Of a stretch of 64,000 nucleotides of DNA, positions 33,269 through 36,557 are shown piece after piece (the stretch's first letter is position 1; each line of letters opens with the position of its first letter). The translations under genes and the position numbers were made by a program. Source of the DNA: Vulcanimicrobiota bacterium (GTDB lineage: Bacteria; Vulcanimicrobiota; Vulcanimicrobiia; Vulcanimicrobiales; Vulcanimicrobiaceae); assembly GCA_963758805.1 (NCBI GenBank), contig CAVWWP010000002.1, positions 222,918 through 286,917 on the forward strand, in the 5' to 3' direction. The notes under the pieces are model-generated. The model did not search any database. It was given only the letters and a program-made list of their open reading frames with translations, and was not told where the DNA came from.

Positions 33269-33970
33269 GTGGAGGCCCCGGCGGGAATCGGTTTTGACAT
33301 CGATCACACGCTCGCGATCGACAACCGGCTGGAGCGGGTTGCGTTTCTGCGCCTGTTGGAACTGTTGCTGAACGAAGGAGGGCGGAGCATTGGGACGCTC
33401 GCGGACGAGATCGACGCTATCGACGCGCTCCTGGCGGAGCAACGCAGCGGGGCGTTCTCCATCGACATCGCTGTCGAGCGCTTCGCGAGCGCGCATGGCG
33501 TCGCGATGAACTCAAGCTACGCGCGATACTTTCGCGACCGAGCCGTCGAGATGGTCGACGAGTTCGTCGTTCCGTTGCCGGGCGCTCGGGCGGCGCTCGA
33601 TTCGCTGCAGGAACGCGGAATCGCGCTCGTCGTGCTCAGCAACGGTTGGAATCCGCTGCAAGTTCGCAAGGCGGAGCGAATAGGTTTTCGCGGGCCCGTC
33701 ATAACGAGCGCGGATATCGGCGTGCAGAAGCCCGCGCTGCGTGCCTTCGACGCCATGCTCGAGTCTCTCGGGACGCCGGCGTCGCGAACGTGGTACGTCG
33801 GGGACGATCCGCGAGGCGACATTGCGGGTGCCGACGCAGCCGGTATCGCGACCGTCTGGCTCGACTGGGAGAAGAAGACGTACCCGGCAGACGTTGCACC
33901 GCCGACGCATACGGTTCACACTTTTGCGCAGCTGCTCGATATTGCGCTCTCGGCTGAGCGCGCCTCGTGA
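33269..33970 (+). CDS. HAD-superfamily hydrolase
   Basis: GTG 33269. Motif I GFDIDHTL, LSNG, motif IV YVGDDPRGDIAGA. Confidence 0.7.
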   Translation: MEAPAGIGFDIDHTLAIDNRLERVAFLRLLELLLNEGGRSIGTLADEIDAIDALLAEQRSGAFSIDIAVERFASAHGVAMNSSYARYFRDRAVEMVDEFVVPLPGARAALDSLQERGIALVVLSNGWNPLQVRKAERIGFRGPVITSADIGVQKPALRAFDAMLESLGTPASRTWYVGDDPRGDIAGADAAGIATVWLDWEKKTYPADVAPPTHTVHTFAQLLDIALSAERAS

Positions 33971-35730
33971 TGCGCGTAATTGGCTCGATCCTGGCGCTGT
34001 GCATCGCGCTCGTTGCGACCGCGCCCGCGCGATTGCGAGCCGGCGACGCCGGCGCTGCGCCGGTATTCTCGGCGTACGACATGAAGCTCATCGCGCTGGA
34101 GAAACGTTATACATACTGGTCGTTTTCGCAGGATCCGCCATCGGCGACCGATGCGGGCATTCACACGTACGATACGCGCCTTGCGGACTACTCGGCCGCG
34201 ACGCAGGCGGCGCAAATGGCGCAGTTGCGGAGCTTTCGCAACGAGCTCGCGGCGCTGCAGCCGGCAACGGATGCAACCCCCCACGATCGCGTCGATTATC
34301 TCCTGATCCGTTCGGAGATCGAGGGTGACTGGTGGTCGCGCACCGTCCTGCTCGGCTTGCAGCGTAACCCGACGATTTACGAAGGCGAATGCACCGACGG
34401 CATCTTCTCGATCGTCAAGCGGCCGTACGCGAGCGATCAAGTACGTGTCGAGGATGCAATCGCGCGGCTGCACCAGTGCCCACGTGTGCTCCAGCAAGGA
34501 GAGGCAAACCTGACCGATACGGTTCGCGAATTCGCTCAGATCGCGTCTGAAGACGTTCGCGACGGCGATGCGCTCTATACGACGACGCTCGACGTCGTCG
34601 CGCGCCGAACTTCGCCCGCGACGCGCGCCGACCTGCGCTCCGCACAAACGACGGCGCTGACGGCGCTGCACGCGTATCGCGCTTGGCTCGACTCGCACAT
34701 GTCGAGCTTCCACGCCGGCGGCTTCGCGGTCGGCACCGAGCAGTACAACTGGTTCCTGCATCGCGTGCTCTTGCTTCCGTTCGACGCGCAGCAGATTGCG
34801 GCGATCGGAACGCTCGACCTCGCACGCGACCGCGCGCTCGAGGTCTGGGAACAGACGCGCGACGCTCACATACCACCCTCGCAACCCGAACCGGCATTCA
34901 AGTCCAAGAGCGCATTTCTGGCCTACTACGAGCGCAGCCTGAAAAGAATCATCACGTTCATTCAGTCGCACCAAATCCTCGACATTCCCGGCTACATCGG
35001 CCCGTTTCACATCGTCGAGGTTCCAAAGGCGTTGGCCGCGACGTATCCCGGCGGCTTCATGAATCCGCCCGGGATGTTTTCGAAGGATCCGGAGGGGTTC
35101 TACTTCGTTCCAGATTTTAGCCCGAGCAACCAAAGTTTCTTCGTCGAACAAGCGCGGCAATCGGTCTTACCGTTGCTCGGTCATGAAGGGATTCCGGGGC
35201 ACTTCCTGCAGTTCAGCGAGGCGTATCACAATCCCGATTTCATCCGGCACGTCCACGACGACGGGGTCTTCGCCGAAGGCTGGGCGTTTTACGGCGAAGA
35301 GATGCTCATGCGCACCGGTCTGTATGATGGCGATCCGGGCGCACGCAAGCAGGTCATTCATCTCATGCGCCACCGCGCGACTCGCATCGGCGTCGACGTC
35401 GGCCTCGCGACGGGGGCGATGACGCTGCCCGAAGCAATCGCATACTTTCAGCGCAATGCCGGCATCGACTACGACACTGCGCGCGGCGAGGGAACGCGCT
35501 TCGCCATGGACCCAGGTCAAGCGATCGATTATCTCGTCGGCAAGACGCAGGTCGAGACGCTCATCGGGCTCGTGCATGATCGCGAAGGTACGGCATTCGC
35601 GCTGCGGAACTTTCACAATCGGTTACTCTCGTACGGCACCGTGCCGTACTCGACGATTCGCTACGAATGGCTCGGCGACGACAGTTGGCTGCAGCCCGCA
35701 CTGACGCCGCTGGCGCCACAGGAGTTCTAG
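33967..35730 (+). CDS. DUF885-family protein (putative secreted metallopeptidase-like)
   Basis: Signal peptide MMRVIGSILALCIALVA. HEGIPGHFLQ motif typical of DUF885. 4-nt overlap with the HAD gene. Confidence 0.8.
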   Translation: MMRVIGSILALCIALVATAPARLRAGDAGAAPVFSAYDMKLIALEKRYTYWSFSQDPPSATDAGIHTYDTRLADYSAATQAAQMAQLRSFRNELAALQPATDATPHDRVDYLLIRSEIEGDWWSRTVLLGLQRNPTIYEGECTDGIFSIVKRPYASDQVRVEDAIARLHQCPRVLQQGEANLTDTVREFAQIASEDVRDGDALYTTTLDVVARRTSPATRADLRSAQTTALTALHAYRAWLDSHMSSFHAGGFAVGTEQYNWFLHRVLLLPFDAQQIAAIGTLDLARDRALEVWEQTRDAHIPPSQPEPAFKSKSAFLAYYERSLKRIITFIQSHQILDIPGYIGPFHIVEVPKALAATYPGGFMNPPGMFSKDPEGFYFVPDFSPSNQSFFVEQARQSVLPLLGHEGIPGHFLQFSEAYHNPDFIRHVHDDGVFAEGWAFYGEEMLMRTGLYDGDPGARKQVIHLMRHRATRIGVDVGLATGAMTLPEAIAYFQRNAGIDYDTARGEGTRFAMDPGQAIDYLVGKTQVETLIGLVHDREGTAFALRNFHNRLLSYGTVPYSTIRYEWLGDDSWLQPALTPLAPQEF

Positions 35731-36008
35731 AGGAACCTCTGAGGAAATTGATGCACCGATCGTTTGAGCCACAAAGCCGCCAGATGCGAGAAGAAGGCGA
35801 GGGAGCATACTCGAAGGAGTCTGTTACTGAGCCTTCGACAACGCAGGTGGCGGCTTTGTGGCCAAACCCTTCGGGCAGCCGCAGTTTTGCCGCAACTCAT
35901 CGTTGCGGCCTCGGTCACAGAGTTCTCGGCTATGCTCCCTCGGCCGCGCCTCGATCTGCGGCAAAACTGCTCGCTGCGATCGGTGCAGCCATTTCTTCAG
36001 AGGTTCCT
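35731..36008. repeat. 278-bp modular palindromic element (nested and crossing inverted repeats) filling the whole intergenic gap
   Basis: Outer arms 35731..35762 / 35977..36008 (29 paired positions, one G-U on the + strand). 14-bp hairpins 35768..35781/35849..35862 and 35881..35894/35957..35970. 12-nt loop-loop complementarity 35798..35809/35931..35942. Confidence 0.7.
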
Positions 36009-36011
36009 TAA

Positions 36012-36557
36012 ATGCCGCGCATCACCGGCGGACAGCTCGGCAGCCGCAAACTGCGCTCGCCCAAAGGCATGCACGTGCGCCCAACGCCGGGCCGCGTGAA
36101 GGAGTCGCTCTTCTCGATCCTCGTGCACCGGCTCGCAGGCGCGCGCGTTCTGGACCTGTTTGCCGGGACGGGCGCAATCGGATTCGAAGCCGCCTCGCGC
36201 GGTGCGGCACGTGTCGTCTCGGTTGAGGCCTCGCGGGAAGCCGCCGCAGCGATCGAAGAAGCGGCGAAAGATCTTGGAATCGATGACGTCGTGAGCGTCT
36301 TTCCGGCGCCCGTCGAGCGCGCGCTCTATCGGCTCGACGAGCGCTTCGATATCGTCTACTTGGATCCGCCGTACGCGGATCCAGTCCCGCTGCAGCTTTT
36401 ACGCCTCCTGCGCGAGCGTGAGCTGCTCGCACCCGATGCGGTCGTCGTCTACGAACATGCTGCGAAGCGAATTCTTCCCGACATTCCCGGATTTCGCTCG
36501 ACGCGCGAGGAAGTCTACGGCGATGTCGCACTCGCCTTCTTGGCACCGTCAGAGTAA
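36012..36557 (+). CDS. rsmD: 16S rRNA (guanine966-N2)-methyltransferase
   Basis: MPRITGGQLGSRKL..P.G..VRPT..RVKESLFSIL, GTGAIGFEAASRGA, LDPPYA. Confidence 0.9.
   Translation: MPRITGGQLGSRKLRSPKGMHVRPTPGRVKESLFSILVHRLAGARVLDLFAGTGAIGFEAASRGAARVVSVEASREAAAAIEEAAKDLGIDDVVSVFPAPVERALYRLDERFDIVYLDPPYADPVPLQLLRLLRERELLAPDAVVVYEHAAKRILPDIPGFRSTREEVYGDVALAFLAPSE

Follow-up and report, generated by a model that had tools for sequence, protein, structure and literature searches.

The palindromic element lying between the DUF885 and rsmD genes is, judged from its sequence and from that of its relatives, almost certainly a MITE, and the explanation that best accounts for the observations as a whole, which we hold to be very likely, is that a non-autonomous MITE of IS5 type occupies this junction. 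The family is new, with no description in the literature searched; the kind to which it belongs (IS5-type MITE) is already known. The window, by which we mean the whole 64,000-nt stretch of DNA that was analysed, comes from a genome of 2.69 Mb in four contigs with 62.5% G+C.

Boundaries and architecture of the element

The DUF885 open reading frame (33967–35730; PF05960, E = 3e-73) ends with the TAG stop codon at 35728–35730, and rsmD (36012–36557; TIGR00095, E = 8e-39) begins with the ATG at 36012. The original prediction of a 278-nt spacer filling the gap between the two genes was borne out, with 0 nt left after the stop codon and 3 nt before the start codon. This 278-nt span is made up of a 276-nt core on the + strand (35732–36007, GGAACC...GGTTCC), which runs from GGAACCTCTGA to TCAGAGGTTCC, and of one further base on each side (A at 35731 and T at 36008). 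The boundaries are sharp in an alignment of 34 copies with their flanks, and also in 54 copies. Whether taken as 276 or as 278 nt, the element is without transposase coding capacity.

The features of the element are given here as read on the + strand. The left terminal inverted repeat (35731–35761) forms the 5′ arm of the outer stem and contains a TGA (35740–35742) that is the stop codon of the upstream open reading frame in many other copies. The right terminal inverted repeat (35978–36008) forms the 3′ arm of the same stem and carries a GAGG motif (36000–36003) placed 8 nt before the ATG of rsmD. Between the arms lie hairpin H1 (35762–35867), with the conserved tip GAGGGAGCATA (35798–35809) and four conserved tandem G·A/A·G mismatches, a mini hairpin of two base pairs (CC-nnnn-GG) with a variable loop at the H1/H2 junction (35868–35874), and hairpin H2 (35875–35977), whose tip (35910–35942) is an inverted copy of the H1 tip and which shows U·C/C·U loops where H1 has G·A/A·G. 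On the left side of the element, a CTAG tetramer (35727–35730) that contains the TAG of DUF885 probably corresponds to the left target copy, shifted by a single base (the A at 35731), and on the right side a TTAA tetramer (36008–36011), directly followed by the ATG of rsmD, represents the right target copy.

An open frame of 86 codons (window 35751–36011) runs from a conserved ATG at element position 21 to a TAA abutting the rsmD ATG. It is gene-like and could be picked up as a gene by automatic annotation. This "relay ORF", which closes with TAA/TAG at the right flank and might have accounted for the orientation bias described below, was rejected as a selected coding sequence: the frame is intact in 36 of the 72 copies, including copies in antisense context, and codon position 3 is no more variable than positions 1 or 2, so that no codon periodicity is seen.

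Dispersed copies and empty sites

Copies of the element were sought by BLAST and by exact-pattern scans. The original prediction had named additional copies as a pointer to the MITE/REP class, and such dispersed copies were found. The genome of the window holds three full copies, the further two at C2:303238–303515 and C1:1113762–1114039. The three have the same boundaries and are only 83–89% identical to one another, and the proposal that the element was recently inserted is therefore not right. The same genome also contains an internally deleted copy of ~105 nt (C3, about 473990–474098, minus strand) with TTAA on both sides, and a lone end without a partner (C2:294968–294985). Derivatives of 72–186 nt that keep both ends and have one or no hairpin are present in other genomes.

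In total, 72 distinct full-length copies were collected, comprising a set of 54 and an independent set of 18 from metagenome contigs. Matches to the family occur in 17 of the 36 congeners, in two of five genomes from a second family and in none of the 19 genomes of a third; the carriers have 1–18 each (these are matches, not copy numbers). Among the matching public genomes its range covers Ca. Eremiobacterota / Vulcanimicrobiota, mostly Ca. Cybelea and soil MAGs. In viral contigs no copy of the MITE was found, the single match being a chance 21-mer.

The orthologous sites of relatives are empty. Of 60 congeners, 58 yielded the DUF885–rsmD junction, in every case without the element; in the relatives that were read the two genes are spaced by 2–16 nt, the empty site consisting of TAA/TAG, then 2–14 nt, and then the ATG/GTG of rsmD. 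At the other two filled sites the element is absent in all 40 congeners searched, and all three sites are empty in every congener with both flanks matched side by side. Elsewhere, two copies in one genome (L077 and L110) are 98.6% identical and differ in their flanks, which indicates that the family moved fairly recently somewhere. Past mobility is what the empty sites, the dispersed copies and this nearly identical pair indicate.

A different, tiny repeat of the form CCCTTCGAC-(2–30 nt)-GCTCAGGATGACA was also observed, with at least seven occurrences in this genome (C1:1241861, C1:1048542, C1:97342, C2:324232, C2:29775, C3:171287 and C4:4433) and none in the window. It is nested as a 23–48-nt insert in MITE copies of other genomes at two different places, in H2 (L056, L066, L067, L068 and L057) and in H1 (L069).

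IS5-type ends, target and transposase

The ends GGAACCTCTGA...TCAGAGGTTCC are common to the 54 distinct full-length copies of the family. The tetramers flanking them are CTAG, TTAA, CTAA or TTAG on most sides, and both sides are identical in 7 of the 54 copies. In the window copy the IS5-type ends give the non-identical flanks TAGA and TTAA, with CTAG offset by one base. IS5 of E. coli begins with GGAAG and duplicates a 4-bp YTAR target, and the IS5 group in the ISfinder classes is defined by a 4-bp YTAR duplication and by ends beginning with GG. Both characters, the YTAR tetramers and the GG ends, are found in the MITE family.

Screening the genus for DDE_Tnp_1 genes brought to light, in the congener G006, an intact IS of 1,135 bp (L181:1335–2469; C1:1207477–1208611) with 12-nt perfect ends and a CTAG duplication on both sides. 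The ends of this IS (GGAAGCTCTGAAG...) match 11 of the 12 terminal bases of the MITE, and its protein of 321 aa matches NF033581 (IS5 family transposase, E = 7e-102) and PF01609. Like the IS5 family and the IS of G006, the MITE begins with GGAA(G/C)CTCTGAAG and is inserted at YTAR tetramers (CTAG), which are duplicated around the IS and identical on both sides in some of the MITE copies. However, the interior of the G006 IS is unrelated to the MITE beyond ~19 nt, and therefore the MITE is not a simple deletion derivative of this IS. The two also differ in size and content, since an IS of the IS5 group measures about 1.1–1.2 kb and encodes a transposase, whereas the MITE has 276 nt and no transposase gene. 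The absence of a DDE transposase gene (PF01609 / NF033581) from these 276 nt makes the element an IS5-family derivative and not an IS.

G006 itself has no match to the MITE, so that the parent-like IS and the MITE copies are found in different genomes. Neither this genome nor the four other copy-rich genomes searched yielded an intact matching transposase, which makes present-day mobility here doubtful; one copy-rich genome contains degenerate remnants of such a transposase. The genome of the window has a PF01609 transposase ORF (260 aa), whose surroundings are devoid of MITE-like ends, and a short degenerate fragment with stops that is similar to the G006 transposase (sites of the ORF and the fragment: C1:1255871–1256311, minus strand, and C3:347693–347872). 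The PF01609 transposases of 61 genus genomes were considered as drivers of the MITE and rejected, because their presence does not track that of the MITE; in four of the five most copy-rich genomes PF01609 is absent or represented by a fragment only. In five copy-rich genomes no long partner bearing identical 19-nt ends was found either; the pairs of ends there are at most about 330 nt apart.

In the scenario that we propose, an IS5-type DDE transposase supplied in trans would recognise the GGAACCTCTGA... ends, and the element would be pasted into a YTAR tetramer centred on TA (CTAG/TTAA). YTAR has a density of 1.8 per kb in the genes of this genome, and 549 of 1,804 stop codons (30%) lie within one. 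Since the tetramer is rare in genes and nearly a third of the stop codons fall in one, insertions that are retained only where they disrupt nothing would gather at the stop/start junctions of tightly packed operons, which would explain why the copy in the window "exactly fills" the gap between DUF885 and rsmD. In most of the 54 copies the upstream stop codon lies at 0, −1 or −12 nt relative to the left end, the −12 stops being the TGA inside GGAACCTCTGA; 38 of the 54 have a start codon no more than 45 nt from the right end, mostly at 2–18 nt.

Predicted fold and covariation

A closer inspection of the pairings on which the original prediction was built revealed the outer arms, recovered by a repeat search as 35731–35762 and 35977–36008 (32 nt, 91% complementary in the window copy, and conserved in the 54 copies), the hairpin 35768–35781/35849–35862, which extends to 35756–35788/35842–35874, the perfect 14-bp pair 35881–35894/35957–35970 and the local 8-bp hairpin 35889–35896/35902–35909. 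The outer stem of the window copy has three non-Watson-Crick positions in all. One is a G·T wobble, given as G-U in the original prediction; the two further mismatches are located in the 3-nt gap between the 18-nt and 11-nt arms described at first.

The minimum free energy (MFE) of the window element is −170 kcal/mol for the + strand and −164 for the − strand. Dinucleotide shuffles reach about −101 ± 5, which gives the element a z of about −12.5, and none of 200 shuffles folds as well. The consensus structure derived from an alignment of 44 copies consists of an outer stem of 29 pairs, H1, the 2-bp mini hairpin and H2. Double changes are seen in 57 of its 100 pairs, against 18.2 ± 2.4 in shuffled alignments (0 of 500 as high) and 11–21 in slid controls, and standard pairs fill 97.3% of the cells, against 92.3% (shuffled) and 37–41% (slid controls). 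Both sides have changed in 18 of the 29 pairs of the outer stem, and double changes affect 24 pairs in H1 (helices 2 and 3) and 14 pairs in H2 (helices 5 and 6); the mini hairpin (helix 4) is uninformative in this respect because it is invariant. The outer stem and the two hairpins are thus strongly supported by compensatory changes. Such changes are also known from REPINs, which are DNA-level mobile hairpins (PMC3116915), and therefore covariation alone is no proof of an RNA role.

The complementarity between the loops (35798–35809/35931–35942) is present as well, within the longer blocks 35787–35814/35926–35953. The kissing-loop or pseudoknot topology proposed on its basis is not supported: a double change is seen in one pair, against an expectation of 2.1, and 482 of 500 shuffles perform no worse. 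Where one side of the loop blocks varies, the partner stays unchanged. A second 12-nt block (35820–35831/35910–35921) shows complementarity in the family consensus, broken by two mismatches in the window copy, and it is also free of compensatory change. The loops are complementary because the H2 tip is an inverted copy of the strongly conserved H1 tip, both being one module.

Strand asymmetry and orientation bias

The hint that the + strand matters, drawn at first from a single wobble pair, holds across the family in the G·U pairs, in the MFE and in the sense orientation. With flanking genes called by a codon-usage score trained on this genome, 30 copies between co-directional genes are in sense and 1 in antisense orientation (both sets together). 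In the arrangement stop-element-start the 54-copy set gives 21 sense versus 1 antisense (p = 1e-5), and the independent metagenome set of 18 copies gives 9 versus 0. Five copies on one 2.9-Mb contig run in both chromosome directions, each of them sense to its local genes, and the same applies to copies only 15 kb apart on one contig that point in opposite directions. Replication direction is therefore not the cause of the bias.

The + strand has three fixed G·U pairs and no fixed A·C, and at Watson-Crick pairs the G·U and A·C cells stand at 88:50. The MFE of the + strand is the lower one in 48 of the 54 copies, by −7.6 kcal/mol on average, although the copies are related by descent, so that the G·U and MFE counts overstate independence. 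Copies found only in antisense context have largely lost the + strand advantage (−2.2 vs −7.9 kcal/mol, p = 0.02), a result that is only suggestive since the sample is small (n = 5). The sense bias and the better fold of the sense strand suggest that the transcribed RNA may be under selection, as with ERIC and Correia elements, and we give selection at the RNA level an even chance of being the cause of the orientation bias.

The same MITE could also be a neutral passenger of operons whose orientation bias and strand asymmetry are due to the way it inserts or to shared ancestry, either through a transposition complex that is directional relative to transcription or through the inheritance of the G·U pairs of one founder. 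We lean against this explanation while regarding it as a serious one. The fixed G·U pairs and the GA mismatches could be the inheritance of a master copy, and the pairs that ever show G·U (41) are not many more than those that ever show A·C (34). The same GAGG is present at both ends, for which reason the supply of a ribosome-binding site is not enough to account for the orientation bias, and no obvious functional asymmetry was found. Within the element no promoter-like site was detected, and a terminator was rejected as the source of the asymmetry, the one weak terminator-like hairpin (35973–35989, near the right end) being not convincing. The compensatory changes of REPINs, too, need no RNA role (PMC3116915). 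On the other hand, the ends of the MITE are near-identical over 19–22 nt and the preferred targets are palindromic (CTAG/TTAA), which leaves a DDE transposase without an evident way to sense gene direction. The neighbouring copies with opposite directions, each locally sense, and the + strand advantage lost in antisense-only copies also speak against neutrality.

Other origins of the element

A chromosomal, non-mobile structured ncRNA or cis-regulatory RNA gene belonging to the DUF885–rsmD operon would be in keeping with the very stable fold, the strong covariation and the sense orientation, but this reading, which we consider extremely improbable, is refuted by the empty junction in all 58 congeners and is further opposed by the copies between unrelated genes, by the IS5-type ends and target tetramers, and by the lack of an Rfam family at threshold. 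Searches of Rfam on both strands with permissive thresholds returned only sub-threshold noise from microRNA models, the best match being a plant miRNA model with 27 bits versus a threshold of 99. Of the two possibilities raised by the original prediction, the functional RNA gene thus falls, with Rfam empty and the site empty in congeners that have both flanks side by side, and the MITE/REP-like DNA element stands, on the strength of its scattered copies, of orthologous sites that lack it, and of its IS5-type ends and target tetramers.

A REP/REPIN-like or IS200/IS605-derived element, transposed in single-stranded form by a Y1 (HUH) enzyme, would naturally give the strand and orientation bias observed, and would agree with two imperfect hairpins that carry compensatory changes, but there is hardly any likelihood of it, as PF01797 (Y1_Tnp) has 0 matches in this genome and four copy-rich congeners (control genomes do match), the element possesses 30-nt terminal inverted repeats and TA-centred flanking tetramers, both of which to our knowledge are lacking in IS200/IS605 and REPINs, its ends match those of an IS5-family IS, and its orientation tracks local gene direction and not chromosome position.

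Possible working at the DUF885–rsmD junction

For the IS5-type MITE, the state of the junction before insertion can be seen in relatives with empty sites (L146–L156), in which an AGGAG in the last codons of DUF885 is located 8 nt before the start of rsmD. The position of this motif within the last DUF885 codons (window 35715–35730) argues that DUF885 and rsmD are translationally close-coupled. The insertion moved the native AGGAG signal 281 nt away. GAGG/GGAG is enriched ~twofold over background upstream of genes in this genome, with a peak of spacing at 5–9 nt. In the predicted fold the GAGG of the element is paired in the outer stem, whose opposite arm starts right after the DUF885 stop codon.

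From its position, the element would be co-transcribed with DUF885 and rsmD. Its RNA would then fold out as a compact three-way junction that brings the upstream stop codon beside the downstream start codon, and the GAGG of the right end would take over from the native ribosome-binding site of rsmD, which the insertion displaced. On reaching the left junction, a terminating ribosome could open the outer stem and free the GAGG, which would amount to translational coupling, and only the sense orientation would be tolerated or useful at the RNA level. That the family is in this sense a mobile "operon-junction cassette", selected as a sense RNA with a three-way junction, four tandem G·A motifs and a coupled ribosome-binding site, is a tentative proposal that we think rather unlikely.

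At the second copy of this genome (C2:303516–303540), an ATG immediately follows the right end and shares the reading frame of the gene downstream. The ancestral start codon of that gene, ATG in relatives and GTG in this genome, lies 5 codons beyond it. The insertion may have provided the downstream protein with an N-terminal extension of 5 residues.

Comparison with known palindromic elements

ERIC, like the MITE described here, is an imperfect palindrome with terminal inverted repeats and TA-containing targets; it is situated in transcribed intergenic regions and forms long RNA stem-loops, as would be expected of the MITE too. ERIC differs in its length of 127 bp, its single stem-loop and its occurrence in Enterobacteria, whereas the MITE has 276–278 nt, a three-way fold, IS5-type 4-bp targets and a distribution in Eremiobacterota. 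We know of no sense bias in ERIC as strong as the 30 to 1 of the present family. In Yersinia, ERIC is co-transcribed with the flanking genes, and its effect on the mRNA depends on orientation, with ribosomes unmasking an RNase E site (PMC2229807, PMC10969869).

The Correia (NEMIS) elements of Neisseria share with the MITE the long inverted repeats and the TA targets. Correia elements are co-transcribed, and RNase III cleaves the stem that their RNA forms (PMC10969869, PMC2229807); we infer that the 30-bp outer stem of the MITE may be a comparable substrate for RNase III. Correia elements measure 100–155 bp, have IHF sites and outward promoters and reach hundreds per genome; the MITE family, in contrast, shows 1–18 matches per genome and no detected promoter. 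REPINs, which are REP doublets moved by RAYT, resemble the MITE in being mobile palindromes in which compensatory changes preserve the hairpin (PMC3116915), but they are without terminal inverted repeats and target duplications of the MITE type and need a Y1 transposase.

Significance

The element provides a natural example of how target choice (YTAR) and purifying selection place a transposon between a stop and a start codon. The explanation of a striking "structured RNA" signal as a transposon guards against its annotation as a regulatory RNA in MAGs of Eremiobacterota. Experiments on host-transcript selection on bacterial MITEs have so far been done mainly with ERIC and Correia, and this family, with its near-exclusive sense orientation, conserved fold and outward-facing GAGG, is a good system in which to test for such selection. 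If the operon-junction cassette were real, the MITE could insert between overlapping or abutting genes without breaking their translational coupling, or while retuning it, and the 30-to-1 sense bias would then be the trace left by this coupling requirement.
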